64,000 nt of DNA from the NCBI GenBank assembly GCA_964348695.1, contig CAYGDI010000001.1:159473-223472 (forward strand), in the 5' to 3' direction. Shown in pieces: positions 1,772 through 63,933 of this stretch. Origin of the DNA: an uncultured Candidatus Saccharibacteria bacterium. GTDB lineage: Bacteria > Patescibacteriota > Saccharimonadia > Saccharimonadales > Saccharimonadaceae. The notes beneath the pieces are model-generated. The model did no database searches. It was not told the DNA's origin and saw only the letters and a list, made by a program, of their open reading frames with translations. The position numbers and the translations under genes are program-made. Position 1 is the stretch's first letter; every line of letters begins with the position of its first letter.

Positions 1772-1777
1772 GTTGCT

Positions 1778-1806: not shown

Positions 1807-1816
1807 GCAGTAGCAT
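1790..1816 (-). terminator. intrinsic terminator after nrdB
   Basis: Hairpin atgctactg-cttg-cagtagcat followed by UUUU on the minus strand, 20 nt after the nrdB stop. Confidence 0.45.
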
Positions 1817-1835
1817 GATATGAGCTGGTTGGTGT

Positions 1836-2834: not shown

Positions 2835-2855
2835 ATTTCTCCCCTGTTTATTATT

Positions 2856-3026
2856 TTATTGACAACCGTCACAAGCGAGTTCGTCTTGTGGGTCGATCAA
2901 AGACTGCATGTTGATATTGCTCGTACTCTGATTGCTCACACCTTGTGCTTGCATCTCAGCCAATGCTTCCTGGATAGCTTTCATCCGGAGCTCTATTTCT
3001 TCTTGTGTTTCTTGTTGTGGACTCAT
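2856..3026 (-). CDS. 56-aa protein with a C-terminal CxxC tail (MSPQQETQEE...DPQDELACDGCQ); absent from the ORF track
   Basis: ATG at 3026 is preceded by AGGGGGAAAA. The stop is 21 nt before the nrdB RBS. It sits between nrdA and nrdB on the same strand. Confidence 0.55.
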   Translation of the reverse strand: MSPQQETQEEIELRMKAIQEALAEMQAQGVSNQSTSNINMQSLIDPQDELACDGCQ

Positions 3027-3086
3027 TTTTCCCCCTACTTATGTTTGATTGTTTTATTTTTTGAGCTATTCGTCGTGATCCATATC

Positions 3087-5486
3087 TTACCCCCGTGCTC
3101 CGAAGCCAAAGCCGAAGCCTCCAGCTTTTGTTTTTGTTATCTCTTCTGCCTTGTTGACTTTTGTGGTTGCTTGTTCGGCCTGGTGACGTGGTTTGACATG
3201 TAGGTAGTAGGTCGTCTTTAAGCCTTTTTTCCATGCGGTCGAATAGATGTCTACCATATCGTCGATGTCGCGGGTCTCTAGGTACATGTTACGGCTAATT
3301 GCTTGGTCTACCCACTTTTGGGCGCGGCCGGCTACTTCGATAAAGGCCATTGGTGACAGCTGAAAACTGGTTTTGTATACGTCTTTTAAGTGCTGTGGAA
3401 TAGCACGAATCTCTGTGAGATCGCCCTGGTATTGCAGGACTTCGTCTTTGACGTCGTTCCAAATGCCGAGAGCTTTGAGGTCATTGACGAGATTGACATT
3501 GACTTCTAGGAATTTGCCGTTTAGGGTTGAGCGGCTAAATATCTGTGAAAACTGTGGGTCTAGGCCTGGTGTTGTACCAGCAACGTGAGCGATATTAGCC
3601 GTTGGCGCGATAGCCATCAGTGTTGCATTGCGCATGCCTTTTTTGACTTTTCCTCTGAGTTTTTCCCAGTCTAGACGAGTCTTGCGGTTGATATCTACAC
3701 TTACTTTGCGGTCGATACTAGCGAGTTCAACAGTGTCAATTGGCACTAAACCTTTGCTCCATCCGCTGCCTTTGAACATTGGGTATGGTCCACGTTCTTT
3801 AGCGAGGTTAGCTGATTCGTCGATTGCCTGGTAACTGATGAATTCTACTAGTTTGTCGATGAGCTCGTAAGCTTCTTCGGATTCGTAACTATAGCCTAAT
3901 TTCTCTATAACATCTGTAAAGCCCATTACACCTAGTCCGATTGCGCGGTTTTGTTGGTTGGAATGCATTGCCTCTTTGACGGGTGTATTGGTGATATCCA
4001 CCAGGTTGTCGAGTTGACGAACCGCAGAACGGGTACTGGCATCTAGTCTTGTCCAGTCAAAATCTTTTTTCTCTGGTATGTAGTGCGCAGCGAGATTGAC
4101 ACTGACAAGGTTGCAAACCGCGGTATTTTCTTTGTCTTGCGGCAAAGTTATCTCGGTACATAGGTTTGAAAGATGTATTGTACCGGTGTTGTTGTTGAGT
4201 GCGCGGACATTGATAGTGTCTTTCCAGGTGAGCCATGGGTGGCTGGTAGCCTGCAGTACTATGAGGATTTGGCGGAACTGTTCACGGGCTTTTGTTTTTT
4301 CAAATGTACGCATCTCGCCTGCATCTGCTAGTTTGATGTACTCGGCGTAGCGTTTGCTAAAAGCGCTGCCATAGAGTTCACATAGATCAGGTGTGTCAGC
4401 TGGGTCGAACAGATACCAATCTTCGTCGTTGTCGACGCGTCGCATGAATTCATCTGATATCCATGCTGCGGTGTTGGCGGTTCGTACACGTAGGTATGGG
4501 TCGCCAGAGTTTTGTTTGAGATCGAGAAATTGTGGGAAATTGAGGTGCCAATTTTCCATATAAAATGCTAGTGCACCCGCCTTTTTGCCCTTTCGACTGA
4601 CAGCTCGCAGAGCTGCATCAACGACATTCATAAATGGTATTGGGCCAGTTGAGACTGTATTGGTGCTCTTGACTGGGCTGCCTTCGGCGCGGAGTTTGTT
4701 CATGGACAGTCCAATACCGCCGGTGCCTTTTGATATCCACATGACGTCGCTGACAGTTTTTGCGATTGAGTCCATTTCATCCTGGGTCTCCATGACGAAA
4801 CAGTTGGAAAGTTGCGGAAAAGCCCCGCCAGCATTGACTCGAGTTGATCCACCAGGTATGTAGTCAAACCTACTCATGTGCTCGTAAAATTTGAGTGCTG
4901 CTTCGGTTGGGTTCTTTTCGTTAAAACTAAGTCCCATCGCTATACGCATCATGGTAAACTGAGGTGTTTCGATAGGTTCTCCATCTTGTTTTCTTAGGGC
5001 GTAGCGGTTTTTACTAGTGATAACACCTAGGTATTTCATCAGTTGATCACGACTTGGATCGATTGCGGCCGCAAGTTTTTTGACATCAAAAAGCTTGCTG
5101 TCTCCCATGCGACGATCGAGGAGTTTGTCTTTGACTCCTTCCCTAATATACGCAGGGAACTTTTTCTGGTGTAGTTTGATGAGCTCTTCATCGTTCTCGT
5201 AATCCCCGAGAACATTTTTGTAGATGGTTTTTAATAATAATCTTGCGGCAATAATATCAAAGTCTGGATCATCTTTGACATTTTGGAGAGCTGCATGTAT
5301 GACGGCTTCGTCTAGTTGTGTCGTTGTGATGCCATCAAACAATGTCAAACTCACCTCTGTTGCAACTTGGATAACTTTTGATATCTGATCATCAAGTCCA
5401 CGCGATGCTCTCTCTAGCGCGCGGTTGATCTTGTCTGCGTTGTACGGCTCTTTTGCACCGTCAATTTTTGTGACTGAAATGTCCAC
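3087..5486 (-). CDS. nrdA: ribonucleotide reductase class Ia alpha subunit with N-terminal ATP-cone
   Basis: 799 aa. ATP-cone (VTKIDGAKEPYNADKINRALERA) and catalytic core motifs (NLCTEI, PTANIA). GTG start follows GGAGGG plus 9 nt. The C-terminal 60 aa contain no cysteine. Confidence 0.95.
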   Translation of the reverse strand: MDISVTKIDGAKEPYNADKINRALERASRGLDDQISKVIQVATEVSLTLFDGITTTQLDEAVIHAALQNVKDDPDFDIIAARLLLKTIYKNVLGDYENDEELIKLHQKKFPAYIREGVKDKLLDRRMGDSKLFDVKKLAAAIDPSRDQLMKYLGVITSKNRYALRKQDGEPIETPQFTMMRIAMGLSFNEKNPTEAALKFYEHMSRFDYIPGGSTRVNAGGAFPQLSNCFVMETQDEMDSIAKTVSDVMWISKGTGGIGLSMNKLRAEGSPVKSTNTVSTGPIPFMNVVDAALRAVSRKGKKAGALAFYMENWHLNFPQFLDLKQNSGDPYLRVRTANTAAWISDEFMRRVDNDEDWYLFDPADTPDLCELYGSAFSKRYAEYIKLADAGEMRTFEKTKAREQFRQILIVLQATSHPWLTWKDTINVRALNNNTGTIHLSNLCTEITLPQDKENTAVCNLVSVNLAAHYIPEKKDFDWTRLDASTRSAVRQLDNLVDITNTPVKEAMHSNQQNRAIGLGVMGFTDVIEKLGYSYESEEAYELIDKLVEFISYQAIDESANLAKERGPYPMFKGSGWSKGLVPIDTVELASIDRKVSVDINRKTRLDWEKLRGKVKKGMRNATLMAIAPTANIAHVAGTTPGLDPQFSQIFSRSTLNGKFLEVNVNLVNDLKALGIWNDVKDEVLQYQGDLTEIRAIPQHLKDVYKTSFQLSPMAFIEVAGRAQKWVDQAISRNMYLETRDIDDMVDIYSTAWKKGLKTTYYLHVKPRHQAEQATTKVNKAEEITKTKAGGFGFGFGARG

Positions 5487-44706: not shown

Positions 44707-45300
44707 TCAAATATCTTCTACCAGCTTTTCTAACATAATTTGCAGCGGTTTTTCATCTCCGTGGTAGCCTATGGCGCATGCACCAATATTTTCTTTGCTG
44801 TTCATTCTATTCCAAGCAATACTTTTACCAGCGTTAAATGCCAAGAGGCTCAAAAAGGTTCGAATGACCCGTCCATTACCCTCTCTGAAAGGATGGATAA
44901 TATTTAACTCGCAATAGTAGTGAGCAATCCGCTTAATAAAATCATCAATCGAAAGATTATTCAGATTATCTTCACGCTTTAACTCCTCCAATAACTCTAT
45001 CGCCGAGCTCTCTATATGCCGCGAGTGAGCAAAACGTGTCTTATCTTTCGCCAGTTCTATTCTGCGTATTTCACCGGCCCAGTCATATATATGTGAAAAT
45101 ACTTGTTTGTGTATTTCACGCAGCAACTCCAGATCAAACACAGTAATAGCGGGACTTTCAATCAAGATTGTACTAATTTCAACGGACGTGATCTCTGCTT
45201 CTACTTGTTCCAGTTCACTTTGCGTTTTGATATTCAGTAAATTATGCAATACTCCAGTATCCGGATTAAAATACGGGTCATTGGCAACATCGTACGACAT
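44707..45300 (-). CDS. fic: Fic-family protein (AMPylase-type toxin)
   Basis: Canonical Fic motif HPFREGNGRVIR within a 197-aa protein. Confidence 0.9.
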   Translation of the reverse strand: MSYDVANDPYFNPDTGVLHNLLNIKTQSELEQVEAEITSVEISTILIESPAITVFDLELLREIHKQVFSHIYDWAGEIRRIELAKDKTRFAHSRHIESSAIELLEELKREDNLNNLSIDDFIKRIAHYYCELNIIHPFREGNGRVIRTFLSLLAFNAGKSIAWNRMNSKENIGACAIGYHGDEKPLQIMLEKLVEDI

Positions 45301-45307
45301 GGCTGTC

Positions 45308-45499
45308 TTACTTGTTATTAGAGTTTGTAGTCATTTCTTGGATAGTTACTTTGCGTAACTTGCTAGCTGTCATTTTGCCACTAGCGTATTCATTCAGGCG
45401 TTGTTGAGTATTTTTAGAGGGTTTTAGGCCTTCTGCCCGCACTGATCCTATTGCAGCATTAACTGCCTTTTGTCTAGCCGCGACATTTGACTTATTCAT
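45308..45499 (-). CDS. VbhA-like antitoxin of class I Fic toxins
   Basis: 63 aa, 7 nt upstream of fic. It carries the inhibitory (S/T)xxxE(G/N) motif as SVRAEG. Confidence 0.75.
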   Translation of the reverse strand: MNKSNVAARQKAVNAAIGSVRAEGLKPSKNTQQRLNEYASGKMTASKLRKVTIQEMTTNSNNK

Positions 45500-45571
45500 G
45501 TTTTAATTATATCACAATACTACGTTACGATCAATACTTTTAGCTTATGCTTATCTGTGTGGAATAATCTG

Positions 45572-46030
45572 CTAGAAATCTGCGATAACGAGTTTTTTCA
45601 TTTGCATCATTTTTTTGAATGCATCTGGTTTGCTCATTAGTTCGCCCATGTTTTCGGGGACGACTTGCCAGCTCAGGCCGTATTGGTCTTTGCACCAGCC
45701 GCATTGTTCGTTCTCAGGGTTTTTGGATAATTTTTCCCAGTAATAGTCGATTTCGGCTTGGTCTTTGCAACTGATCGAGAATGATACAGATTCGTTAAAT
45801 TTAAACTCAGAGCCTGCGTTGATAGCGACAAATGGTACACCGTCTAGCTCGAACTCGACTGTCAGCACATCGCCAGCCAAGTTTTGCTGAAAGTCAGCCA
45901 GCCCTTCCTCGGCCGTTTTCGGATAATATTCGGTAGATGTTATTTTGCTGTTCGGAAATACCGACACATAATAATCAACCGCTTCCTTTGCGTTACCATC
46001 GAACCATAAATTTGCTGTGATCTTTTGCAT
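45572..46030 (-). CDS. VOC-superfamily protein (PhnB / 3-demethylubiquinone-9 methyltransferase-domain type)
   Basis: MQKITANLWFDGNAKEAVDYYVSVFPNSKI is the family's typical N-terminus. Confidence 0.75.
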   Translation of the reverse strand: MQKITANLWFDGNAKEAVDYYVSVFPNSKITSTEYYPKTAEEGLADFQQNLAGDVLTVEFELDGVPFVAINAGSEFKFNESVSFSISCKDQAEIDYYWEKLSKNPENEQCGWCKDQYGLSWQVVPENMGELMSKPDAFKKMMQMKKLVIADF

Positions 46031-46092
46031 AACTCGCCCCTTTGCTTATGTTCTAATTATATATTAATTCACAATATGAGCAGCACACAATG

Positions 46093-46845
46093 TCATAGTT
46101 GATTCGCCTCTTCTACCAAACGAGGTAAAGTTAAGCCATATTGCCTCTTCATTTCTCTCATACGCCAAATACCTCGTAGCATATCGTTGTGGCAATTTTT
46201 CACCTTATCACCCGAATTGCAAACGCAGCGATGGTTGGCCCCGTACTTCTTGCTCAATAGATAGAAAAATAGCTTTTCACCAGTTAACTTAATAATGTCT
46301 CGGGCGGTTGTGACTAGGTCTTCCCGTGTAATATTGGCAGCTCTTGCAAACCACTCGAATAGGCCAAGGAAATGATGGCTTAGCTCGCCCCAGGGCCAGT
46401 CGTGGTACTTTTCGTAATACGACTGAGCGTATAGGCGTGGGATGAGGAAATTAGTTATATATTTTTCGAGATTGAAAGTTTTATCAAAAGCGCGGGTAAG
46501 ATCTCTTGGGCCTGAGTCACACAGAAAGTTTGGTAGAGTTTCATATACGTGTAGATCGGCTAAGCGCTTTCCTAGACTCGCCGATAAAGCTTCGACACGT
46601 CCGCCTATTTCTTCTGTAAAAGGATACTTGTAGCCTGGCTGCCAGCGTATACGAACTTTGTAGCGGTCCTCAATGAGCATACCTTTGTCGGCTAGCCTTG
46701 CAATATCTACGGCAGATGGGTTTATGACAACCTGTTGGCCGTCATAAAGCGCCTTAAATGGCACCCATCCTTCAACAAACTGCCCTTTGTGGTATAAGGG
46801 CAGCTTGGCAGTTTGAAGCCACTGCAAATCTTCATCGGACCACAT
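46093..46845 (-). CDS. hypothetical protein with a possible UBC/E2-like core and a C-terminal SEC-C-type CxC...CH motif
   Basis: ATG lies 4 nt after the NTase stop (alternative TTG at 46887). Motifs are YKYPF..., LHVYETLPNFLC (H-x9-C) and CVCNSGDKVKNCH. Confidence 0.6.
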   Translation of the reverse strand: MWSDEDLQWLQTAKLPLYHKGQFVEGWVPFKALYDGQQVVINPSAVDIARLADKGMLIEDRYKVRIRWQPGYKYPFTEEIGGRVEALSASLGKRLADLHVYETLPNFLCDSGPRDLTRAFDKTFNLEKYITNFLIPRLYAQSYYEKYHDWPWGELSHHFLGLFEWFARAANITREDLVTTARDIIKLTGEKLFFYLLSKKYGANHRCVCNSGDKVKNCHNDMLRGIWRMREMKRQYGLTLPRLVEEANQL

Positions 46846-46849
46846 GGGT

Positions 46850-47884
46850 TTAGTAACCCCAGGGTTGACTTGGGGTTGGAATAACAACCCGCTGTGTAAA
46901 AACCGGAGCGGCTGTACTGTTCGCTTCTTCTACAGACGTAAGCTTGTCTAGTAAGGTAGCCACTTCTGTTACCGAGCTAGCACGAGATAGGCTTGCAACC
47001 AACCTAGCTGCCTCTTGCTGCAAGCCAAGTATTAATTTGCGGCCTTCATCGGTCAGCTTATCTTCAATATACTGGTCTACATACTGGGTGCTGTCTGCTC
47101 GGTCTGGATAATGTGGAGCATCAAGTCGTTCTGCTAGCAGCGCAATACTACCTCCTATAGATTCGAGAGTATTTGCGCCTGGGTTAGTCTGGAAGTGCTC
47201 AACACAGACCTGTTCTAAATGGAATGATTTCAGTATGAAATTATCTTCGTGGTTGACTTTTTGCTTGTGTCGCCATGACTTGACTACCTTTACAGTCTTG
47301 CGAAAAGTACCTTTGGTATCGGCATCGAGCTTTGTTGCTGCAGAGATGTAGCCCTTCGGATCCGATTTAATCCAACCGATTGGGCTGTGGGCTTCGTTTT
47401 CATAGCATTCGACACGTTTTTGATGGCTAGCCTTTAATATTTCGGGCACGATATATAGTGGGTCGCCAAACTCATTAGTCTCGCTGTCTGAAGTTACAGC
47501 TGGCACGACATCGATACTGAAGGATTCTGGAGCATCATCGTCATCAAAAACTATCGTCACGGAGTGTGTTTGGGCGATAATCTCTTTGATCTTACTAATC
47601 TTGCTCTTCATGTAGGCTTCTAGCAACACGGCGCGCAACTTAGCCATGACCTTTTGGGGATCGCTTAGTACGGCATTGTCAGGTAGGACGTAGATTACAT
47701 CCAGATCGTGTACCGGGTCGATGGCGGTAAAGCGTGCGTAAGAACCGGATTGGAAGCAACTATTGCCAAGAAGTGTGCACAGCTCCGCGTATTTCTTGGT
47801 TATGTAATCCCGCTGTTCCTGTTTTGGTGAGAGGTTCTTCCGTACGTAGTTGTCAATAGACTGTGAAATTTCAGTAGTATTCAT
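46850..47884 (-). CDS. SMODS / CD-NTase-like nucleotidyltransferase
   Basis: The Pol-beta NTase core has GSYARFTAIDPVHDLDVIYVL (G-S...D-x-D) and a third acidic residue in FSIDVVPA. An OAS1-C-like helical region follows (VKSWRHK...LKSFHLE). Confidence 0.75.
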   Translation of the reverse strand: MNTTEISQSIDNYVRKNLSPKQEQRDYITKKYAELCTLLGNSCFQSGSYARFTAIDPVHDLDVIYVLPDNAVLSDPQKVMAKLRAVLLEAYMKSKISKIKEIIAQTHSVTIVFDDDDAPESFSIDVVPAVTSDSETNEFGDPLYIVPEILKASHQKRVECYENEAHSPIGWIKSDPKGYISAATKLDADTKGTFRKTVKVVKSWRHKQKVNHEDNFILKSFHLEQVCVEHFQTNPGANTLESIGGSIALLAERLDAPHYPDRADSTQYVDQYIEDKLTDEGRKLILGLQQEAARLVASLSRASSVTEVATLLDKLTSVEEANSTAAPVFTQRVVIPTPSQPWGY

Positions 47885-48361
47885 CTATTTGTCCTCCGGA
47901 TAGGTACTCATCAGTGCAAAAACGTCAGAAATTAGCCGCAGCGGCGTGTTGCACATGGACTGATGTGAGTAGCTCTGTAGCAGCTTCATGTCATCATCGT
48001 TAATGTGTGTTGGCCCGGCATACACAACCACCGGTATCTCTTTGTTCTTCGCTGCATTGAAGACCTTTTTGAAGTCATCTGAGTTGGGAGTATAGCCGAT
48101 AATAGCCAGACGACTGCCGTTGAGTAAATCAGCTTCCCGATTGTCGGACGCAGCTTCACCAACATTGAAGAAACCGACGCGCTTTAATAGTTTTGCCTCG
48201 TGCTTCATTGGTTTATCGGCGGTGCCAATTACACAGATTGGCCGTTTAATATTTTTGAAGAGACGACGCTCCTTCTTGTGGAAGAAACTAAGCCACACCG
48301 CCGCTCCAACGAAGCCACCTACGAGTGGCCAAAGAGTTTGAATTGTAGACCAGGGGTCCAT
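47885..48361 (-). CDS. single-pass membrane protein with a cytosolic Rossmann-like alpha/beta domain
   Basis: ATG follows GAGGG plus 5 nt. TM segment WPLVGGFVGAAVWLSFF. Alternating beta-alpha pattern (ICVIG / AIIGY / PVVVYA). Its stop abuts the NTase ATG. Confidence 0.65.
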   Translation of the reverse strand: MDPWSTIQTLWPLVGGFVGAAVWLSFFHKKERRLFKNIKRPICVIGTADKPMKHEAKLLKRVGFFNVGEAASDNREADLLNGSRLAIIGYTPNSDDFKKVFNAAKNKEIPVVVYAGPTHINDDDMKLLQSYSHQSMCNTPLRLISDVFALMSTYPEDK

Positions 48362-48509
48362 GGTTACCCTCACTTTCGTGAAATAAATTTATATATGTTT
48401 TGTTTTTCCAGCTTTAAACTAGTAATTTTTGTTTTTGCAAGAGGTTGGGCTTTTGCCGGTTGATCGCCTTTCAGTCAATCGGTTAAAGTCTGATATTCTT
48501 GATACAAAA

Positions 48510-52752: not shown

Positions 52753-53739
52753 TTATTGAAAAAACAAACTCCACACGTAAAATAGCCCGAAAAGAACAAG
52801 TAATACGATTGTGGCTACAGGTACTTTTGTTGCAAGACGTTTGCCTGGTGCCGCGATGACATTTTGACTGCGGTCACCTACCCGAGAATCGGCGTAGTAG
52901 TCGGTCTGCTCGGTGAATTCTTTGTTCAAAAGATTGGCGATACTCACGATCTCTTGCAAGCGTTTGGCATCTGTGAGTTTGAGCTTTGACGGTGAATATA
53001 GATATAGTGAGTCGTCGATAATTTCGCAGTCGTAGTCATGAGCGGCATCTATCATAGCCTGCATAACATCAGGTGTAAAGACGTACAAAGCATCGGTTTT
53101 GTACTGTGCTGGTGCGAAGAGTGTGAAGTGTGAATTAAAATCTCCTTCTAGCTCTAGTTTTTGATCATTAGAAAATCCTGTTGGCAGATTGGTGAATTTG
53201 CCAAAGAGATTGTTCTTTTTTGCATCGAGCACCATGTGAGGTAATCTCCGCGGCAGTTTGATACGAACATATCCGTAGTCGTGTGTTTGTCTATTTTTTC
53301 CACTACCAGTTTCGTATTGGTAGTTGCCTATTTCGGCAAAAGCTTGATTGGCGGCACTTAGTACAGAAGTAAACTCTTGTGAATCGCCTTGTTGGAATAT
53401 CAAGCCTGGGCGACCATCAAATCCGAAAGATTCTTTGTATGTTAGGTTGTTTTGTTTTGCAAATTCTTTCAGGCGAATATGTTTTGCTGCTGAAAAGTAA
53501 AGACCTATGACAACAACGAGTATGAATACGCCTATAAAGAAAAAGAAAAAAGCATTTTCTATCAGTATGAGCGCCAGAAACATACAGGTAAACGCTATGA
53601 CAACAGCAGCGGTATATGTGATAATATTTGTTTCGAAACTACCTGCTCCATGTGCGATTCTTTCTTTGAAAGTGACTTTTCTCGAAAGAGCCGAGTAATC
53701 AAGTGGCTTGTTGTTCGTGATACTACCCTCGCTGTTCAT
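52753..53739 (-). CDS. hypothetical membrane protein (2 N-terminal TM, 1 C-terminal TM)
   Basis: 328 aa. TGTTATAAT lies 8 nt upstream of the ATG (leaderless-type). Confidence 0.6.
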   Translation of the reverse strand: MNSEGSITNNKPLDYSALSRKVTFKERIAHGAGSFETNIITYTAAVVIAFTCMFLALILIENAFFFFFIGVFILVVVIGLYFSAAKHIRLKEFAKQNNLTYKESFGFDGRPGLIFQQGDSQEFTSVLSAANQAFAEIGNYQYETGSGKNRQTHDYGYVRIKLPRRLPHMVLDAKKNNLFGKFTNLPTGFSNDQKLELEGDFNSHFTLFAPAQYKTDALYVFTPDVMQAMIDAAHDYDCEIIDDSLYLYSPSKLKLTDAKRLQEIVSIANLLNKEFTEQTDYYADSRVGDRSQNVIAAPGKRLATKVPVATIVLLVLFGLFYVWSLFFQ

Positions 53740-53794
53740 ATGAAAGTATTATAACATCTTGGATATTGTAAAAGCCGACGGAGGTTTGGTGACC

Positions 53795-53968
53795 TCACGC
53801 CGGCTTGAAACGAAAGAACATTTTGAGCCACTGGAGTACTCGGCTCGGTGTTCGTTCGCTGTGAAAAAGTGAATTGACTGCACCGCAATAGCGGCAGACG
53901 ATTCTGGCTCCTATGCCATTTTTTAGCAATTTGCTTGTCTGAGTGTGTTTGCATTCTCTACAGATCAT
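53795..53968 (-). CDS. small zinc-ribbon protein (CxxC...CxxC)
   Basis: MICRECKH...IVCRYCGAV. AAAGGAG lies 11 nt upstream. The start is uncertain. Confidence 0.4.
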   Translation of the reverse strand: MICRECKHTQTSKLLKNGIGARIVCRYCGAVNSLFHSERTPSRVLQWLKMFFRFKPA

Positions 53969-54040
53969 GCCCTGTACTACTCCTTTTTGCGTGGTTTGCA
54001 AAAAACCAATATCTACATGTTACTACACAATATGTCTAAA

Positions 54041-54661
54041 TCATTTAGAAATGATTGGTGATTTTTGGACAAAGCTATTTTGTTCGAGGACTTGCAAAAT
54101 TGCGCTGGCTACCTCGTCGCGGCCAACATATGGTTTGGTAGGCCCGTTTTCACGTAGTGTGAAGGGTTTTTCGGCGACATTCTGTAGTTTGAGTACCCGA
54201 ATAACTGTCCAATCTACATCACTTTGCTCTAGTAGTTTGACGTGTTCTATGCCGTCTTTGACACGGTTTGGGTCGACGATACTGATACCGAGGTTTAAGA
54301 ATCTATCTAGAAGCGTTATTTTGTCGCCAGGAAAGCGCACGCCAGTACCTGTCAGGCTGACGATACGTGTGACGCCTGTGGATTTCATGCAATCTATAAC
54401 TGTAGATATAGCCTGAGTCTGCACATGAGCTGGTGAACCTTTGACATGGCCGATCAGGCTGACGACTGCATCGCAGCCAGTGATAAGTTCCTTGACCTGA
54501 TCTGGATTTGTTGCATCGCAATCAACTGTGGTGAGTTTCGGGTTATTTGGCAGGTAGCTTTTGCCTAGTATGCCACCGCGGACCTGGTGGCCAGCATCGA
54601 GCGCCTTTTGTACAAACGCTTGCCCACTACGGCCATTGGCTGCAATAACGGCAATTTTCAT
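54041..54661 (-). CDS. NAD(P)-binding atypical SDR (NmrA/BVR-B-like)
   Basis: MKIAVIAANGRSGQAFV matches the GxxGxxG variant of the NAD(P)H-binding family. Its ATG overlaps the heliorhodopsin TAA (TAATG). Confidence 0.75.
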   Translation of the reverse strand: MKIAVIAANGRSGQAFVQKALDAGHQVRGGILGKSYLPNNPKLTTVDCDATNPDQVKELITGCDAVVSLIGHVKGSPAHVQTQAISTVIDCMKSTGVTRIVSLTGTGVRFPGDKITLLDRFLNLGISIVDPNRVKDGIEHVKLLEQSDVDWTVIRVLKLQNVAEKPFTLRENGPTKPYVGRDEVASAILQVLEQNSFVQKSPIISK

Positions 54662-55425
54662 TATGGTCGCAGTGTACCGGCAAAGACTTGCCAGGCTAGT
54701 AATGATTTTGCAACTAGGCTGAGGATGATGTACGCACGTTCGCCGTATAAGTAATTCGCCCAAGGGCCGATCTTTTTGTATTGCAACACCATATTGAGTG
54801 CAAAGCAGTTAAAGAATACAAAGATAGATACGAATATCCAGTAGACAAATGTTGGGGCAGCGCTGCCGTGGTCGGCGCCTGCCCACATGTACAGTGCGAT
54901 AACTGCCCATGGCACGATACCAGCTAGACAGCCTATCCAGTAGCTGAGCCAGTTGGTCTTTTCGGTAGTTTGGTTATGAATCTCCATCACTAATCCCATG
55001 AGGTTCATGATTGCCGCTAGGACAAATATCATCAACAAGCTAGCACTGTCGTATATGCCGACCAATAGCGCAATTGCGACCATCATGACACTGGCAGATA
55101 TAGAATATTCTATCCAGCGGGCTTTGTTGATGCCCTTTTTGAGGTTTTTGTTGTACGCACGATTATAAACTGTGGCGATCGTAAGGTGTGCAATTGCTGA
55201 GAGGAAGAAAAATGATGCGATCAATGCAGGTAGTGATAGATCGAATAATGTGTCACTAGTTGGCTGTAGGCTGCGGGTTGCTGGGTCAAATGTCAGGTAG
55301 CTGACGCTAATCGGTAGTTCGAATGTTTTACTGAGTAGCAATACGGCTACACCCTGGGCTGCATGTAACGCTGCCGCTATTAGATTTAGTTTTCGTAAAC
55401 TTTTAGGCGTGATTTCCTTTACCAT
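54661..55425 (-). CDS. heliorhodopsin
   Basis: 254 aa with 7 TM segments. Long stretches align with my remembered heliorhodopsin 48C12 sequence: RWIEYSISASVMM, WIGCLAGIVPWAVI, FVYWIFVSIFVFFNCFAL and YGERAYIILSLVAKSLLAWQVFAGTL, the last including the Schiff-base Lys. Confidence 0.85.
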   Translation of the reverse strand: MVKEITPKSLRKLNLIAAALHAAQGVAVLLLSKTFELPISVSYLTFDPATRSLQPTSDTLFDLSLPALIASFFFLSAIAHLTIATVYNRAYNKNLKKGINKARWIEYSISASVMMVAIALLVGIYDSASLLMIFVLAAIMNLMGLVMEIHNQTTEKTNWLSYWIGCLAGIVPWAVIALYMWAGADHGSAAPTFVYWIFVSIFVFFNCFALNMVLQYKKIGPWANYLYGERAYIILSLVAKSLLAWQVFAGTLRP

Positions 55426-55485
55426 AATCGCAATATAACATAAGCATATTAAAAATGCCTAATATTGTTTTTGTTGCAAGTTGTT

Positions 55486-57468: not shown

Positions 57469-57879
57469 CTAAGAAAGTTCTACTGCTGCGCCTGCTTCTT
57501 CTAGAAGCTTCTTAGCAGTATCTGCTTCGTCTTTGCTAACTTTTTCTTTGACTGGTGCCGGAGCGCCGTCAACGATAGCTTTAGCTTCACCTAGACCTAG
57601 TCCAGTGATTTCTTTTACAGCTTTGATGACTGCAACTTTTTGTGCGCCTGCATCTTTTAGAGTTACTGTAAATTCAGTTTTCTCTTCTGCTGTGTCTGCA
57701 CCTGCGTCACCGCCAGCTGCTGGAGCTGCTGCAACTGCTGCTGGAGCTGCTGCTGATACACCCCATTCATCTTCAAGGTGTTTAACAACCTGTGAAAGCT
57801 CGAGAGCTGAAAGTTTGTTGAGCTCGTCAACGATTTTCTTTTGGGCTGCGTTTAGTTTTACTGATTCTGTATCTGCCAT
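57469..57879 (-). CDS. rplL: 50S ribosomal protein L7/L12
   Basis: Ala-rich hinge plus C-terminal domain [27 protein letters not shown]. Confidence 0.97.
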
Positions 57880-57900
57880 GATATTCTCCTTTGGTTAAAA

Positions 57901-58425
57901 TTATCCTTGTTCTGCCTTTTGCGCTAGGACTTGTGTGAATCCGCGCTGTGCGCCATTTGCTACACCCAAGAACTGGGTGAGAGGAGCTGACATAACGCCA
58001 ACTAGCTGTCCGCGTAGTTGGTCTTTGCTAGGCAAGTTTGCAAGTGATTGGACAGTTGCTGTGTCGAGTACATTGCCGTCGCTAAACCCAGAGACCAATT
58101 GTAGGTCAGTATGAGTTTTTGCAAATGCAGCGATAACTTGAGCTGGCGCTATCTCGTCCTCTGAAGAAAACGCATAGAGCAGCTGGTCGGTTAGAGATGA
58201 AGTGTCGGCATCTTTGTAAGATGCGTTTTCACCCAAAGCCACACGTACAAGACGGTTTTTGACTACCTTTATCACAACGCCGTTTTCACGAGCCTTTTTG
58301 CGCAGTTCCTGCATGTCTTGCACGCTAAGTCCTGTATATTTTGCTGTGACAGTTATTTTTGCACTAGCGAATAGCTCTGCAAGTTCTGCGACTAGTTCTT
58401 TTTTCTTGTCTTTTGTGATTGCCAT
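57901..58425 (-). CDS. rplJ: 50S ribosomal protein L10
   Basis: 174 aa with YTGLSVQDMQELRKKARENGVVIKVVKN. Confidence 0.95.
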   Translation of the reverse strand: MAITKDKKKELVAELAELFASAKITVTAKYTGLSVQDMQELRKKARENGVVIKVVKNRLVRVALGENASYKDADTSSLTDQLLYAFSSEDEIAPAQVIAAFAKTHTDLQLVSGFSDGNVLDTATVQSLANLPSKDQLRGQLVGVMSAPLTQFLGVANGAQRGFTQVLAQKAEQG

Positions 58426-58575
58426 ATAAAATGACTCCTGTTTAGTTGTATCGACCTTGTCCTTAAAACCATAAACTCCGACTCAGACCCGCAAAATTAC
58501 CAGGGCAATGTAACTTCGCTACTCGGGGAACGAGAGTCTTCGCTAGAGTTTATGGTTTAAGGTATATCTCGACTT
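58426..58575 (-). promoter_or_regulatory. ribosomal protein L10 leader-like structure
   Basis: A long helix ccttaaaccataaactc / gagtttatggttttaagg (58461-58562) encloses a branched region immediately upstream of rplJ. Confidence 0.5.
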
Positions 58576-58582
58576 TTTACAA

Positions 58583-58618
58583 ATAAAAAAGTCTTTGATT
58601 CTCGCATTACCAAAGACT
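58583..58618 (-). terminator. intrinsic terminator after tmk
   Basis: Hairpin agtctttgg-taatgcgagaat-ccaaagact followed by U6 on the minus strand. Confidence 0.6.
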
Positions 58619-58709
58619 AATAACAATCTTGTTTTTACTCCTCGGTGGCTTGATTAAGTCTGACGACCGCCACTGTCTTCGGGTAATGTTCATGTACTAT
58701 GCTAACAAA

Positions 58710-59351
58710 CTAGGCGGCCTCTGTCAACGGCTCTATATGCTCCCAAATCTCAGCATACACTTCTTCAACTGTGGTGCTTGCATCTATGACCGGGTATTTG
58801 AAGAAGTGAGCCAGCTCTTCGTAGCCAGCCTTGACTCTATTTTGAAAATCATCATCACGTGATTCAAATGTGTCCGGGTTTTCTAAAGAACCTCGTTGCT
58901 CTATTCTTTTTGTCCGTTCTACTTCGTTCTTGAGACTCAGTACACAAGTAAAATCAGGGCTGATATAGCCTTCGGAAGTAAACTGCTTGGTGGTTTCCCA
59001 TATATCATCTCGGTTAAGTCCTTCTCCATAGCCTTGATATGCCATTGTTGATATCCAGTTTCTGGCTGCCACGACCCATGTGCCTTGTTCTAGGCTAGGT
59101 ATAATAACTTGGCTATCTATTTCACGCCGAGCAGCGGTAAAAAGAAGAAGATTGGTGATAGCGTCGCGCTGTAAGTCTCCGTTTTTAATAATAGTACGTA
59201 GTTCATCTGCAATGGCTATGCCCGCAGGCTCTTCGATTTTGACTGATTGGATACCGCTAGCAGCAAGTCGTTTACGAAGGATCTCAACTTGTGTTGATTT
59301 ACCAGTGCCATCGTGGCCTTCGATTACGATATATTTACCTCGTTCGGTCAT
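58710..59351 (-). CDS. tmk: thymidylate kinase
   Basis: P-loop IVIEGHDGTGKST and the DRY-like AARNWISTMAYQG. Confidence 0.9.
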   Translation of the reverse strand: MTERGKYIVIEGHDGTGKSTQVEILRKRLAASGIQSVKIEEPAGIAIADELRTIIKNGDLQRDAITNLLLFTAARREIDSQVIIPSLEQGTWVVAARNWISTMAYQGYGEGLNRDDIWETTKQFTSEGYISPDFTCVLSLKNEVERTKRIEQRGSLENPDTFESRDDDFQNRVKAGYEELAHFFKYPVIDASTTVEEVYAEIWEHIEPLTEAA

Positions 59352-59422
59352 GATTCTAATCTCCTATAAAAATTGATGTGGGCGGGCGCTTTTTAGGGCG
59401 CCCGCCTGCATCTTTACTTCCT

Positions 59423-60400
59423 TTATGCCGCGTGTTTGATCAGACCGAAATTCTCTTCATGTGGAAGATCTGCTCGGTGCTGGTGCCAACCGAGGAGGTT
59501 GCCCTTTTGGGGCTCTCCTTCTTCGTTTGGTCGACAAGAGTGTTCCATGGGCGACATGTGCCCAGGACCAGCTAGCCGTCCGTACATCGTGAGGTCTTCG
59601 CCATAATCGCGAACACCCCTGTGAGTCAGGTAGCTGGTACGAGCACAGCGTGCACATGAGATCTTGATTTTGGTCTCTGTGTCGAGCTCCTGCTTTTCGT
59701 CCGGTTGCACGAACGGCACGTGCCATTGTCCGTAGTCGAGCGCCTCGGGTGTCGAAGACTCCATTGCTGCAAGCATCAATTCCGCTGGTTTGCGGATTTC
59801 TGCCTGGGCATGCTCGTCGATACGTAGCGCCATGAAGTTTTCCCATTCAGTGGCGGTCACGATGACCGTGTGCCACATGTATGGCTCGAGACCCCGGTTG
59901 GCCAACTGCTTGTGCACGTTGAGAATCTCAACATCAGCTGGGTCTTCCTTGTCCAGCTCTTTGATGATCAGCTTTTTGGCCGCTTCAAAGCCTGCCTCTA
60001 GTTGATCAATGGTTGCATATTCACCAGCTGTTGGGCTGTACTTGAACATGTCACTTGCGCGTTCTTCGCCAAGAATCAACTCAAACGCGGTTGTCACAGC
60101 GCGGTCACGACCACGCAGCCAAATACGAAGTGCCTCGTCGCGCGCCAGGCCGTCCAGCCAAGCATACGACTGCATGCCCTTCTGGTTGATACCGAACCTT
60201 TCTGGAATGAAAGGCTCTACAAGCAGTTTTTCGATCTGCTTGTGCACTGGAATTGCTCGTGAACTAGCCGAATTTCGACTGAACATGCGATGTGTGTTGA
60301 ACTCAGCCAACACAATGCGAGGCATTTCTGCCTCAAGAGTTGTGACTCGCTTTCCCTGTGGTGACACAGAATCAGCGACCACCTCTGCTCTGTAAGCCAA
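59423..60400 (-). CDS. ThyX-like (flavin-dependent thymidylate synthase-like) protein, divergent
   Basis: The N-terminal THRMFSRNSASSRAIP resembles the ThyX signature RHRxxSxxxxSxRY, but it is shifted to residues about 36-51 and has A in place of Y. The protein is 325 aa. Confidence 0.5.
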   Translation of the reverse strand: MAYRAEVVADSVSPQGKRVTTLEAEMPRIVLAEFNTHRMFSRNSASSRAIPVHKQIEKLLVEPFIPERFGINQKGMQSYAWLDGLARDEALRIWLRGRDRAVTTAFELILGEERASDMFKYSPTAGEYATIDQLEAGFEAAKKLIIKELDKEDPADVEILNVHKQLANRGLEPYMWHTVIVTATEWENFMALRIDEHAQAEIRKPAELMLAAMESSTPEALDYGQWHVPFVQPDEKQELDTETKIKISCARCARTSYLTHRGVRDYGEDLTMYGRLAGPGHMSPMEHSCRPNEEGEPQKGNLLGWHQHRADLPHEENFGLIKHAA

Positions 60401-60440
60401 TGCTGGCCTCCAATGTCGGATTGTTTAGGATGTAAAGATA

Positions 60441-61154
60441 CTACCCACGTGGGTGTAATTGTACACCATCATCCCGGTAGAGTCGAACAGCTTTTCCACC
60501 AAGTCTTGGCAGCATCATTTCTGGCGTCCAAAGCTCTTTTAGCTCTTCTAGGTCTGATGTTGTCTGGTAGTGACCACTTAGCTGTGAATACTCACTTTCT
60601 ACTTCACCAGTTTCGTGGAAAACGATTTGTGCTATAGGTGCTCCAACAACTAGAGGTATGTGTTCATGCTCGTTGGTGTTCTGTATTTCCATAGTCCAAC
60701 GGTTAAAATAACCAGGGTCGCCCCAACCAGCGTCATAGCAAACTGCTACGCCGATACGTCCCATCGAACTTTTAGCCTGCATACTAGTTGTACCTTCTCG
60801 TATGCCTATAAATTCTTGTGTATGTCCCAGCACTCTCTCTCCTGGTCGCAATATTATTATTTTTGCATCCTCTGGTATACCAGTTAGTTCTCTGGGGCCA
60901 AATACTTCTTGCATTTTACTGTGCTCAGCAAAAGGCAACGCAGGAAAATATCGAAAATAGCGATCTACATCTTCTTGATCGTAAGGGTTAAATAGTTTTG
61001 GGTAAGGGTCGCCATTTGGGTCGGTTGCGTAAAAATGCTCGCCTAGCGTGACATCTACACTACTTCCATTTACGTTTTCAGAAATCAAAGGGTCAATAAT
61101 AACATTCCCTCGTGCGTAATGTTCCATTATTTGTTTGTTGCTCAAAACTCCCAT
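60441..61154 (-). CDS. dcd: dCTP deaminase / dUTPase-superfamily protein
   Basis: N-terminus GVLSNKQIMEHYARGNVIIDP...SSVDVTLG and core GWGDPGYFNRWTMEIQN. Confidence 0.75.
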   Translation of the reverse strand: MGVLSNKQIMEHYARGNVIIDPLISENVNGSSVDVTLGEHFYATDPNGDPYPKLFNPYDQEDVDRYFRYFPALPFAEHSKMQEVFGPRELTGIPEDAKIIILRPGERVLGHTQEFIGIREGTTSMQAKSSMGRIGVAVCYDAGWGDPGYFNRWTMEIQNTNEHEHIPLVVGAPIAQIVFHETGEVESEYSQLSGHYQTTSDLEELKELWTPEMMLPRLGGKAVRLYRDDGVQLHPRG

Positions 61155-61234
61155 GTCTAGCTATTCATTATACATACTTTTCAAAGCTGCAAAAATGTGA
61201 AACATACATCATTTTTGCATGTTATTATTGTTGC

Positions 61235-61672
61235 ATGACAGCAACAAGATCTAGAAAAGAAGTAAAAACATACAGCAAACATATGAAAAATACGCCAAAA
61301 TCGAGTAGCTGTGTTTTTTGTGCGATTGATGGTAGTACTGACCAACTAGTTGCTGAGACAAAGTATTTTAAGATAGTTCGCAATATATTCGGATATTCAC
61401 TCTGGGACAGTCAAAGGGTAGCTGACCACCTAATGGTAGTACCAAAGAAACATACCGATAGTTTGAACAAATTGTCCAAAGAGGTGGCAATAGAATTTGT
61501 CAGTATACTAGGAGAATACGAGTCAAAACAATATAACATATACGCCAGAGCTCCTTCATCGATCATGAAGACTGTTACTCATCAACATACTCATCTCATC
61601 AAACCTTCTGGGAGACCACGAAAACTAGTCTTTTTGTGGCGCAAACCATATATACGTTTGACGCTTGGGTAG
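61235..61672 (+). CDS. HIT-family nucleotide hydrolase/transferase
   Basis: CVFCAI... and the histidine triad HQHTHLI. TGTTATTAT lies 6 nt upstream of the ATG. Confidence 0.75.
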   Translation: MTATRSRKEVKTYSKHMKNTPKSSSCVFCAIDGSTDQLVAETKYFKIVRNIFGYSLWDSQRVADHLMVVPKKHTDSLNKLSKEVAIEFVSILGEYESKQYNIYARAPSSIMKTVTHQHTHLIKPSGRPRKLVFLWRKPYIRLTLG

Positions 61673-61674
61673 AT

Positions 61675-62652
61675 TTAAAGGCTGACTTTGATACCAGGAC
61701 CCTGCGTTGTGCTGACACTGATACTGTGTATGTAGGTTGCTTTCAAGCTTGATGGTTTTTGGGATTGTAGGCTATCGACAAAAGTTTTTGCATTGTCTTG
61801 TAGTTTTTGTGCGCCAAAAGAGACTTTGCCGACGGCAACATGTACTATTGCTTGCTTGTCAACACGGTACTCGATCTTGCCTGCTTTTGCTTCTTTTACG
61901 GCTTTTGCAACATCGCCAGATACGGTTCCACTTTTTGGATTTGGCATGAGACCGCGAGGTCCTAGTACACGAGCGTATTTACCAAGACGAGGCATAAACT
62001 GAGGGGTAGCGACAAGAATGTCAAAATTGATCTCTTCTTTGTCTAGTTGTTGCAAAAATTCATCTTCACCTACAATATCTGCACCGGCTTTTTTGGCTGC
62101 TTCATGCTGATCGCTAGGGGCAAACACAGCGACACGTATGGTTTTGCCTGTTCCATGAGGTAGGCTGACTGTGGATCGGATATTTTGGTCGGCTTGTCGA
62201 GGGTCTACACCCAAGCGGACATGTAGTTCAACTGAAGCATCAAATGTGCTAGGACTTGTCTTTGTGGCCAGCTCAAGCGCTTCTTCAAGGCTGTAAAGTT
62301 TTGCACTATCGACTAGCTTGGCTCTTTCTTGGTATTTTTTGCCACGACGTTCGATCATGGGTCTTGTGACTGGTTTTGGACCCTTTTTCTCTACAACAGC
62401 TTCGCCTATTGGGCTAGTGTCGCCTGCTTCTTTGCGAGCTGCTTTTTCAGCTTTTTCTTCTGATTCTTTGACTGATTTTGCAGACCGTTTACCAGCTTTT
62501 GCAGTTGCTTCTGGCTTCTCTGATACTGCTGTGTCGGCGCTAGAGGTATCAGCTGATTGTAGGGCAGCTTCTATCTCGGCAATTGTGTTTTTTGTTGTGA
62601 CTTCAAGTCCCAGTGACTGGGCTTGTTGTAATAATTCGGCCTTTTTTGCCAT
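61675..62652 (-). CDS. rplA: 50S ribosomal protein L1 with a ~100-aa N-terminal extension
   Basis: The core GKKYQERAKLVD...VELHVRLGVDPRQADQNIRSTVSLPHGTGK is canonical L1. It is preceded by a HeH/Rho-N-like helix pair and a Lys/Glu/Ala-rich linker. Confidence 0.9.
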   Translation of the reverse strand: MAKKAELLQQAQSLGLEVTTKNTIAEIEAALQSADTSSADTAVSEKPEATAKAGKRSAKSVKESEEKAEKAARKEAGDTSPIGEAVVEKKGPKPVTRPMIERRGKKYQERAKLVDSAKLYSLEEALELATKTSPSTFDASVELHVRLGVDPRQADQNIRSTVSLPHGTGKTIRVAVFAPSDQHEAAKKAGADIVGEDEFLQQLDKEEINFDILVATPQFMPRLGKYARVLGPRGLMPNPKSGTVSGDVAKAVKEAKAGKIEYRVDKQAIVHVAVGKVSFGAQKLQDNAKTFVDSLQSQKPSSLKATYIHSISVSTTQGPGIKVSL

Positions 62653-62729
62653 TTTCGTTACTCCTTTCGTGGTGCATACGAGTTTTTTCACTCTCCCACA
62701 AATTTACTATTAAAATATATTATACCATA

Positions 62730-63506
62730 TTATCCGTGAAAACTGTGAGCATATTGAATACTTGTGCTCACAAAGATGATTCCGAATAGCAACATCAGTG
62801 TCTGTATATTGGCAGTACGTCTTTTTTGTTCTGTGTGTAGACTTGGTACGATGTCGCTTGCTGCGATATAGATGAACAGACCTGCCGTAACTGCGAGTAA
62901 GAGTGGTTCAGAGATTTGTAAAGCGTCGCCTAGGCCAAATACTAATACTGCTCCTACTACTGTTGCTAGAGCGCTTGCTAGATTGATCCAGAATACTTTG
63001 ATCTTGTCGACGCCCTTTGCTAGGAGTAACCCAAAATCTCCGATTTCCTGGGGGATTTCGTGTGCTGCGACAACAACTGTTGTCAAAATACCGGTTGCAG
63101 GACTGACCAAGAACGCTCCACCGATAGCTAGACCATCGATGAAATTGTGCAATGTATCACCAATAACTATGAGAGATGTGGTAGACGATCTGCCGGAATG
63201 AGTTTTTGTTGTTTCTTTTTTTGTGTGGTGATGAAACCAGTGCAAAAACCGCTCGAGCACAAAGAACCCAACAAAACTTGCTAATGTGTACTGCAGTACA
63301 GTATGAGGATCTTCGCCGTGTTCAATTGCTTCAGGTAGGAGTTCTACGAAAGTTGCTGCTAATAGAGCCCCAGCTGCAAAAGGAGTTGCGAATACCTGGA
63401 TAGTACGCATATTGATTTTGCTATATATCAGCAAAACTCCACCGATGATAGATACTACACTACCAACGATGCTTGCTAGTAGTAGTAATGTCCATGTCGA
63501 TTCCAT
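62730..63506 (-). CDS. ZIP-family metal transporter (ZupT-like)
   Basis: HNFIDGLAIG and HEIPQEIGDFGLL motifs, about 8 TM segments. Confidence 0.85.
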   Translation of the reverse strand: MESTWTLLLLASIVGSVVSIIGGVLLIYSKINMRTIQVFATPFAAGALLAATFVELLPEAIEHGEDPHTVLQYTLASFVGFFVLERFLHWFHHHTKKETTKTHSGRSSTTSLIVIGDTLHNFIDGLAIGGAFLVSPATGILTTVVVAAHEIPQEIGDFGLLLAKGVDKIKVFWINLASALATVVGAVLVFGLGDALQISEPLLLAVTAGLFIYIAASDIVPSLHTEQKRRTANIQTLMLLFGIIFVSTSIQYAHSFHG

Positions 63507-63507
63507 A

Positions 63508-63933
63508 CTAGCCCTCTACCTCTACGCCCATACTACGAGCTGTACCCGCAATGATTTTAACTGCACCATCAACGTCAATAGCGTTGAGTTGGTCTTTTTT
63601 TTCCTCGGCTATCTCTTCTAACTGCTTGCGTGAGATTTTGCCTACTTTTTCACTGTGCGGTTTGCCAGATCCTTTTTCGATACCTATCTTTTCTCTGATA
63701 AGATCGTCAACTGGTCGGCCAAGACTTTTCCAGTCAAAACTACGGTCATCGTATATTTTGAGATGTACAATAACGTCCTTGCCGCCAAGGTCTTTTGTTG
63801 CTTCGTTGAATGGATTGATAAAATCCATCATGTTGAGTCCCCACTGACCCAGGGTTGAACCCACTGGAGGGCCTGCTGTTGCTCGCCCTGCAGGGATACG
63901 TAGCTTTAAGCTACCTATAACTTGCTTTGCCAT
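63508..63933 (-). CDS. rplK: 50S ribosomal protein L11
   Basis: KLRIPAGRATAGPPVGSTLGQWGLNMMDF... Confidence 0.96.
   Translation of the reverse strand: MAKQVIGSLKLRIPAGRATAGPPVGSTLGQWGLNMMDFINPFNEATKDLGGKDVIVHLKIYDDRSFDWKSLGRPVDDLIREKIGIEKGSGKPHSEKVGKISRKQLEEIAEEKKDQLNAIDVDGAVKIIAGTARSMGVEVEG

Follow-up and report, generated by a model that had tools for sequence, protein, structure and literature searches.

The 64,000-nucleotide stretch of Candidatus Saccharibacteria DNA analysed here (the window) carries on its minus strand a heliorhodopsin (HeR) gene followed by a gene for a small protein predicted to be an atypical, NADP(H)-binding short-chain dehydrogenase/reductase (SDR), the two reading frames sharing a single nucleotide (Table 1). 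Close homologues of both proteins occur in metagenome-assembled genomes (MAGs) of Candidatus Saccharibacteria/Saccharimonadales.

The heliorhodopsin gene, the SDR gene and their junction

The HeR frame matches the full Pfam heliorhodopsin profile (PF18761; E = 1.4e-100, 336 bits against a cutoff of 26.7, profile positions 1–242 of 242) and the NCBIfam HeR model (NF038020; 343 bits, cutoff 100), and the protein aligns full-length, with small gaps only, to the solved structures of TaHeR (6IS6; E = 7e-83) and 48C12 (6SU3; E = 3e-57). In these alignments, the Schiff-base lysine K240, which lies in the SxxxK motif S236-L-V-A-K240 (SLVAK), corresponds to K238 of TaHeR and K241 of 48C12; the counterion glutamate E106, in the RWIEYS motif of transmembrane helix 3 (TM3), corresponds to E108 and E107, respectively; and the histidines H21 of TM1 (LHAAQ) and H80 of TM2 (IAHL) correspond to H23 and H80 of 48C12. 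Hydropathy reveals six strong hydrophobic segments in addition to the helix bearing E106, and lysine and arginine are enriched at the N terminus and in the TM2–3 and TM6–7 loops, a distribution from which an N-in topology (cytoplasmic N terminus) is predicted. The alignments confirm that the gene encodes a complete, canonical heliorhodopsin with seven predicted transmembrane helices; all four motifs from which an earlier annotation made without database searches (the sequence-only reading) had called it are present and align with functional residues of solved HeRs. The SxxxK lysine, glutamate counterion, TM1 and TM2 histidines and N-in topology are common to TaHeR, HeR-48C12 and the window protein, and nothing notable sets the latter apart. 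It belongs to a Saccharibacteria-dominated HeR clade, with ~75%-identical homologues in many Saccharibacteria MAGs, and the ratio of nonsynonymous to synonymous divergence (dN/dS) of HeR within the immediate clade is 0.02–0.05.

The SDR matches PF13460 (NAD_binding_10) over nearly the entire profile (E = 8e-27, 94.7 bits against a cutoff of 27.2, profile positions 2–183 of 184). Its match to NmrA (PF05368) is borderline (27.7 bits, cutoff 27) and confined to the N-terminal Rossmann half (profile positions 4–103 of 298); membership of an NmrA-like family was rejected because the whole ~300-position domain is not covered. Neither PF00106 nor PF13561 appears among its Pfam matches, sequence matches to solved structures are weak (E ~1e-7), and a profile search returned a faint match to the thylakoid SDR-like protein ThyD. 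An AlphaFold (AF2) model built from 33 homologues has a predicted local distance difference test score (pLDDT) of 93.6, and a Foldseek search with this model matches human biliverdin reductase B (BLVRB; 5OOG, 1HE3 and 1HDO) with TM-scores of 0.82–0.84 at 22% identity, followed in the ranking by ChuY, YlbE and other small bacterial reductases. The label "biliverdin reductase B (BVR-B)-like" proposed in the sequence-only reading is thus upheld at the level of fold.

In the alignment of the 33 family members, the N terminus MKIAVIAANGRSG is kept throughout, and the blocks AANGRSG, CDAT, GHVKGS, SLTGTGVR, DRxLN, DPxRxxDGxxH and RVLKLQ are invariant or nearly so. The glycine-rich motif reads A7-A-N-G10-R-S-G13 (A-x-x-G-x-x-G), its first glycine being replaced by an alanine that is invariant in the family. 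BLVRB Ser111 and His153, which we take to be active-site residues, are represented by G105 and K158 in a hand alignment extended from the phmmer alignment, and both replacements are family-invariant; with an identity of just 22%, they led us to reject the SDR as a BLVRB orthologue. No tyrosine is invariant or nearly so among the 33 members, so the family has no YxxxK motif; with the Ser-Tyr-Lys triad and the PF00106/PF13561 matches missing, a classical SDR retinol dehydrogenase was also rejected. The invariant R11 aligns with the position-14 arginine of BLVRB, described as a "clamp" that straddles NADP (PMC11675717), and this correspondence supports the predicted NADP(H) binding. Eight charged residues in the pocket region are invariant (R109, D113, D119, D130, R133, D136, R155 and K158), which suggests a polar or anionic ligand and not a retinoid. 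The protein resembles BLVRB and its bacterial relatives (ChuY, YlbE and SP1627) in its single Rossmann domain of ~205 residues, its lack of the classical SDR tyrosine and its clamp arginine; beyond the low identity and the substitutions above, it differs from BLVRB in an invariant set of its own (GHVKGS, SLTGTGVR, DRxLN, DPxRxxDG and RVLKLQ). Within the immediate clade, dN/dS of the SDR is 0.04–0.09, with the SDR of one locus (L087; L-numbers are labels of compared loci) left out of these values.

Two alternative frames over the SDR gene were set aside. A 240-residue version with a TTG start was dropped, as all homologues begin MKIAV, and an antisense frame on the plus strand (53943–54416) is regarded as spurious because the minus-strand frame is under strong purifying selection. 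The longest SDR-family matches (268–310 residues) carry junk-like N-terminal extensions that resemble mis-called starts.

The junction of the two genes reads CCA-TAA-TG, with the A at 54661 closing the HeR stop codon and at the same time opening the SDR start codon. The TAATG is identical in five further lineages (L081, L087, L089, L092 and L093) among which synonymous divergence (dS) is ~1, and the 40 nt upstream of the SDR start, TAATG included, are nearly identical in the five. Neither a Shine-Dalgarno sequence nor a GGAG-like motif precedes the SDR ATG in the window or in these lineages. The lack of such a motif, together with the conserved TAATG and 40-nt stretch, fits coupling by termination and reinitiation, and the SDR is probably translated by ribosomes that terminate at the UAA and restart at the overlapping AUG. 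The overlap that the sequence-only reading had taken as the mark of a translationally coupled operon has persisted over considerable divergence.

Upstream of HeR, a consensus scan finds TAGGCA and TATATT separated by 18 nt, the latter hexamer preceded by TG. The corresponding extended −10 pattern, TGnTAnnnT, is present in 46 of 95 HeR loci, a non-redundant set drawn from different Saccharibacteria species, where it falls in the 20 nt that precede the HeR start and stops 3 nt or more, usually 5–6 nt, short of it; sequence farther upstream of the box shows no conservation across HeR loci. The box is absent where HeR follows the SDR gene, and several of those loci have GGAG-like motifs instead. 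Because the box ends 6 nt before the ATG and recurs there in many Saccharibacteria HeR loci, a leaderless HeR mRNA, with its transcription start site at the A of the ATG or beside it, is well supported as a prediction; the idea had been raised in the sequence-only reading. About half of the window genes have a GGAG-type Shine-Dalgarno sequence, and only four, including HeR and the gene at 52753–53739, have an extended −10 box abutting the start, so that leaderless transcripts look like a minority class in this genome. The starts of the three other genes (at 15518, 34837 and 53739) have TGnTAnnnT 7–8 nt before the start codon and no Shine-Dalgarno sequence.

No terminator-like hairpin was found 3′ of the SDR gene. 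The separate extended −10 box in front of the next gene is likely to mark the downstream limit of the HeR/SDR unit. Between this box and the SDR lies a small zinc-ribbon-like open reading frame (ORF) that has no Pfam or NCBIfam match; it is present in L081–86, L089–91, L093 and L001 and absent from L087 and L092.

Table 1. Coordinates of features at the heliorhodopsin/SDR locus, in window numbering.
Feature	Position	Strand	Basis or remark
HeR coding sequence, 254 aa plus TAA stop (54663–54661)	54661..55425	−	PF18761, NCBIfam HeR, alignment to solved HeRs
Predicted NADP(H)-binding atypical SDR, 206 aa, BVR-B/flavin-reductase fold	54041..54661	−	PF13460, AlphaFold/Foldseek
TAATG stop/start with 1-nt overlap; proposed termination-reinitiation site	54659..54663	−	Read from sequence
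Extended −10 box TGTTATATT	55432..55440	−	Last T 7 nt upstream of the A of the HeR ATG (55425), with GCGATT (6 nt) between
Weak −35-like hexamer TAGGCA	55456..55461	−	Consensus scan only
CxxC...CxxC zinc-ribbon-like small ORF, possible third cistron (membership uncertain)	53795..53968	−	
Separate extended −10 box TGTTATAAT	53748..53756	−	8 nt before the ATG of the next gene (52753–53739); sequence and regex scan

Linkage of the two families across genomes

In the immediate clade, the genes of all SDR homologues at 88–99% identity directly follow HeR and share one nucleotide with it, as in the window. L081, L087, L089, L092 and L093 retain this HeR>SDR unit though the downstream genes differ, the next neighbour being a 328-residue protein, DUF4342/EamA or DUF5652. 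A dS of ~1 among these lineages combined with low dN/dS indicates that selection acts on the junction and on both genes, for which it is strongly purifying.

Beyond this clade, linkage was surveyed from both sides, using the 80 top-ranking HeR loci of a genome collection that represents each species once, with the SDR sought within 6 kb of these loci, and 80 metagenome loci anchored on the SDR. The SDR is the commonest direct upstream neighbour of HeR in the HeR-anchored set (5 of 79 loci), and HeR is the commonest downstream neighbour of the SDR; by chance, 0.16–0.27 adjacent HeR/SDR pairs would be expected in 80 genomes of 600–1000 genes. Four arrangements were seen: the overlapping HeR>SDR pair, the reverse order SDR>HeR, a divergent pair (L163, 62 nt apart) and a longer array in which a divergent TetR gene precedes HeR-c9-SDR-DUF2177, c9 being an unannotated family. 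The SDR>HeR order occurs in 13 loci, with an overlap in L071 and L077, a 1-nt gap in L170 and spacings of 12–31 nt in the rest, several with GGAG-like motifs. Linked pairs fall at seven or more separate places in both the SDR and the HeR neighbour-joining trees. The adjacency would thus have arisen repeatedly or survived rearrangements that include a swap of gene order, and either history argues for a functional link.

Clustering of all neighbours identified two further families that flank either gene. DUF2177 adjoins the SDR in L146, L160 and L161 and adjoins HeR in L046 and L064. DUF2177 and DegV have been described as the most characteristic HeR neighbours, Patescibacteria included (Chazan et al., bioRxiv 10.1101/2021.02.16.431466), and the presence of the same DUF2177 beside this SDR family and related HeRs places the SDR inside a recognised HeR-associated gene set. 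NAD_binding_10 is not named among the significant families of that DUF2177/DegV/DUF1295 network in the main text of the preprint. The c9 family consists of Trp-, Tyr- and Arg-rich proteins of ~168 residues and counts at least 8000 homologues, every named one coming from Saccharibacteria; it adjoins the SDR co-directionally in seven loci (L102, L105, L112, L146, L156, L159 and L167), stands between HeR and SDR in L161, and directly follows HeR in L033 (6155–6712) and L044 (6732–7262). In the L161 array (668–3733), the gaps are 18–19 nt around c9 and 87 nt before DUF2177, and the HeR (273 residues) is 48% identical to that of the window. The window itself is devoid of c9, yields no DUF2177 by tblastn, and has no match to DUF2177 or DegV among the ~50 ORFs scanned against Pfam (all those of at least 150 residues plus a few shorter ones). 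No Pfam, NCBIfam or PDB sequence match was obtained for c9, and its AlphaFold (AF2) model, although confident (pLDDT 85.6), matched no fold in the PDB; a single viral structure, itself unnamed, was a match. An attempt to read the function of the module from c9 was abandoned, since profiles, PDB and fold gave no clue.

Other contexts of the two families were recorded in the same surveys. In one SDR subclade, the gene sits in the conserved block RNase Y–MMPL transporter–6-phosphogluconolactonase/NagB–SDR with no HeR nearby (L113, L119, L121, L124, L125, L128, L131, L134, L145, L148, L168 and related loci), a context that may hint at NADPH or sugar metabolism for the SDR. Paired full-length ABC exporter genes (ABC_membrane plus ABC_tran) run co-directionally and end just upstream of HeR in L016 (2397–5971), L027 (2433–5964) and L051 (2247–5847), resembling the experimentally studied OmrDE–HeR operon. 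One Saccharimonadales contig (DASTXH010000031.1) carries two HeR genes ~54 kb apart (L018 and L063), so that HeR paralogues exist within one genome. Saccharibacteria-like HeR contigs also occur in MAGs labelled Dormiibacterota, Burkholderiaceae, Actinomycetes and Thiobacillus (L013, L029, L073 and protein P0161); these are probably mis-binned, which bears on claims about the taxonomic range of HeR.

Possible roles of the pair

Heliorhodopsins are abundant, few have an assigned role, and it was by testing the product of a neighbouring gene that each known role was found. AbHeR binds a glutamine synthetase from its own operon, which docks electrostatically onto the lysine-rich loops of AbHeR, and regulates this enzyme (PMC9529153); OcHeR likewise binds and regulates the ABC transporter OmrDE encoded in its operon (PMC11109279). 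As in these systems, the partner gene in the window is co-directional with HeR and lies at a very short or negative distance from it, and the same logic of a photoreceptor that regulates a co-encoded protein can be proposed for the window pair. The window partner differs from theirs in family (BVR-B-fold NAD_binding_10) and in being basic rather than acidic. One published HeR operon comes from Thermococcus sp. 2319x1.

With these precedents, the reading we favour, tentatively and at somewhat less than an even chance, is that HeR and SDR form a bicistronic, co-expressed module of photoreceptor and NADP(H) reductase, in which the SDR would be a light-linked redox enzyme or partner. Coupled translation would supply the two proteins together and in linked amounts, and the SDR would act as a cytoplasmic effector or partner of the HeR photoreceptor. 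We picture either an enzyme that transfers hydride with the help of NADP(H) or a protein that binds NADP(H), with a conjugated, polar or anionic compound as its substrate; either the cell would need this activity in the light, or HeR, once activated by light, would modulate it. The physiological context would probably be redox or photo-oxidative homeostasis, or a membrane process linked to DUF2177. Of the two options offered for the SDR in the sequence-only reading, a light-regulated redox enzyme is accordingly the one we would prefer; the other, a retinol/retinal oxidoreductase, is a published idea and fits poorly with a protein that has no catalytic tyrosine and a charged pocket.

Several observations weigh against a photoreceptor/reductase module. 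One is L001, whose HeR is 97% identical to that of the window and nested in the clade on the HeR tree and has no SDR beside it; its DNA resembles that of the window precisely as far as the HeR stop codon and then again from the zinc-ribbon-like ORF onwards, the mark of a clean deletion of ~620 bp that removed the SDR gene. The HeR of L001 retains a dN/dS of ~0.02, and the retention of HeR after the deletion shows that it needs no adjacent SDR. The pairing is also infrequent: in the HeR-anchored survey, the SDR lies within 6 kb in 5 of 80 loci, all in the SDR>HeR order, and in the SDR-anchored survey, HeR is adjacent in 11 of 80 loci and clearly not adjacent in 41, a further 28 being too short to tell. 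The SDR often stands elsewhere, one clade having it after RNase Y, MMPL and 6-phosphogluconolactonase genes. The trees are neighbour-joining trees without support values, so the number of independent linkage events is approximate; the first glycine of the dinucleotide motif is an alanine, and cofactor binding is itself a prediction; and no HeR–SDR fusion is found among the best 150 family representatives of an exhaustive phmmer search of 1.84 billion representatives. Charge complementarity to the basic HeR loops fails as support, because the SDR family is itself basic (pI ~9; net charge +4 for the window protein and +6 for the family median). The sequence-only reading had made conservation of the pairing its test. 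The pair is conserved in the immediate clade and recurs elsewhere in other arrangements, but 75 of the 80 closest HeR loci from other species lack it, and L001 has lost it. Infrequent adjacency overall, together with its loss in L001, points to a facultative link between HeR and SDR.

The likeliest of the alternatives is that the two genes have no functional link, with neutral synteny or hitch-hiking in a rearrangement-prone region bringing them together and chance compaction in a small genome producing the overlap. The clean loss of the SDR in L001 speaks for this alternative, as do the rearranged flanks of the pair even inside the clade; HeR neighbourhoods in Saccharibacteria are extremely variable, with no neighbour exceeding ~9% at any position, and earlier surveys found no conserved context for the HeR cluster of the candidate phyla radiation (CPR). 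The last point refers to a CPR sub-cluster that, in the CPR-dominated cluster C17, is the sister group of the Actinobacteria HeRs (Bulzu et al. 2021, bioRxiv 10.1101/2021.02.01.429150). Against a chance association stand an adjacency ~20–30 times that expected, spread over seven or more tree positions; its survival of an inversion of gene order, with overlaps in both orders; the persistence of the unit across a dS of ~1 while its flanks change; and the sharing of the further neighbours DUF2177 and c9 by both genes. We regard the absence of a link as possible but unlikely.

A non-catalytic role for the SDR is a further alternative, and one we hold to be quite unlikely. The protein would bind NADP(H) only, in the manner of NmrA or HSCARG, and either report redox state to HeR or receive a light signal; alternatively, it would be an assembly factor for a pigment-protein, as the atypical SDR Ycf39/HCF244 is with the high-light-inducible proteins (Hlips). 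Ycf39–Hlip and NmrA are precedents for such roles, and the missing classical catalytic triad, the borderline NmrA match, the faint ThyD match and the predicted tight co-translation with HeR all speak for them. Enzymes of the BVR-B fold, however, are catalytic without a triad, the NmrA match is limited to the Rossmann half, and the very strong conservation of the predicted substrate-site region suggests a specific small-molecule ligand.

Chromophore salvage, in which the SDR would interconvert retinol and retinal or otherwise process a retinoid and so supply all-trans-retinal to HeR in an organism that does not make it, appears improbable. In its favour, no match to blh/BCD, crtB, crtI, crtY or type-1 rhodopsin families is found among the ~50 scanned window ORFs, where the sequence-only reading had likewise seen no gene of retinal synthesis, and this fits the published view that rhodopsin-bearing Saccharibacteria have no blh and would import their retinal (PMC9296517). 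Bulzu et al. have put forward the adh_short SDRs that neighbour HeRs as retinol dehydrogenases, the pocket of BLVRB accommodates a retinoid drug (PDB 7ER7), and tight co-translation would suit the loading of a chromophore. The adh_short case shares with the window the theme of an NAD(P)-dependent Rossmann enzyme beside HeR in an organism without retinal synthesis, but those proteins are classical PF00106 members, whereas the window SDR has neither a PF00106 match nor a YxxxK motif. Nor does its family show any invariant tyrosine, and the BLVRB serine and histidine are replaced by G105 and K158 in the hand alignment. The known retinol dehydrogenases and retinal reductases are classical SDRs, medium-chain dehydrogenases/reductases (MDRs) or aldo-keto reductases (AKRs) with an acid/base catalyst, which counts further against this role. 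A hydrophobic polyene would fit poorly among the charged invariant residues of the pocket region, over 90% of related HeR loci have no adjacent SDR, L001 deleted its SDR and kept its HeR, and many SDR loci have no HeR nearby.

Most doubtful of all is the more ambitious proposal that the SDR is a dedicated cytoplasmic transducer or assembly partner of HeR within a shuffling set of four families (HeR, SDR, DUF2177 and c9), through which HeR would link light, at the membrane, either with an NADPH-dependent reaction or with the sensing of NADP(H); if true, it would be the first defined HeR output pathway for Saccharibacteria.

The favoured photoreceptor/reductase reading appears to add a new partner family to a known pattern. 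The literature searched contains no report of HeR linked with a BVR-B, NmrA or flavin-reductase-type protein. In the parts of the supplements of Shim et al. 2024 that were available, Saccharibacteria HeR sequences appear in an alignment only, and no NAD(P)H-binding, NmrA or flavin-reductase neighbour is named. The pairing of HeR with this BVR-B-fold family in Saccharibacteria thus appears to be undescribed and to be a variant of the HeR partner-operon pattern. No conserved genomic context had previously been reported for Saccharibacteria HeRs, and the SDR offers a concrete candidate partner: it is small, soluble and easily expressed, its linkage is tight, recurrent and independent of gene order, and it is tied to DUF2177, among the most characteristic HeR neighbours. 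Should the link prove functional, light sensing would be joined to NADP(H)-dependent chemistry in an episymbiont of minimal metabolism; if it does not, the locus holds one more well-formed HeR gene.

Other features of the window

The zinc-ribbon-like ORF downstream of the SDR directly follows HeR in L001 (2735–2905). Fusions of an N-terminal Zn-ribbon to HeR have been described in other lineages (Bulzu et al.), and a link between the ORF and these fusions is conceivable.

Elsewhere, the window carries the ribosomal protein genes rplKAJL together with genes for an F-type ATPase, ribonucleotide reductase and histidine biosynthesis. The ribosomal genes lie on the minus strand at 57469–63933, where the order rplK-rplA-rplJ-rplL is interrupted by a ZIP transporter gene between L11 and L1 and by dcd-thyX-tmk between L1 and L10; the L1 ORF (338 residues) has ~140 extra N-terminal residues, possibly from a mis-called start. 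Also on the minus strand, at 44707–48373, a protein with a SMODS nucleotidyltransferase domain (46850–47884) is encoded between two ORFs that have no Pfam match, with a Fic protein gene (44707–45300) nearby; the region may be a defence locus, either of a type resembling the cyclic-oligonucleotide-based anti-phage signalling system (CBASS) or of another kind.

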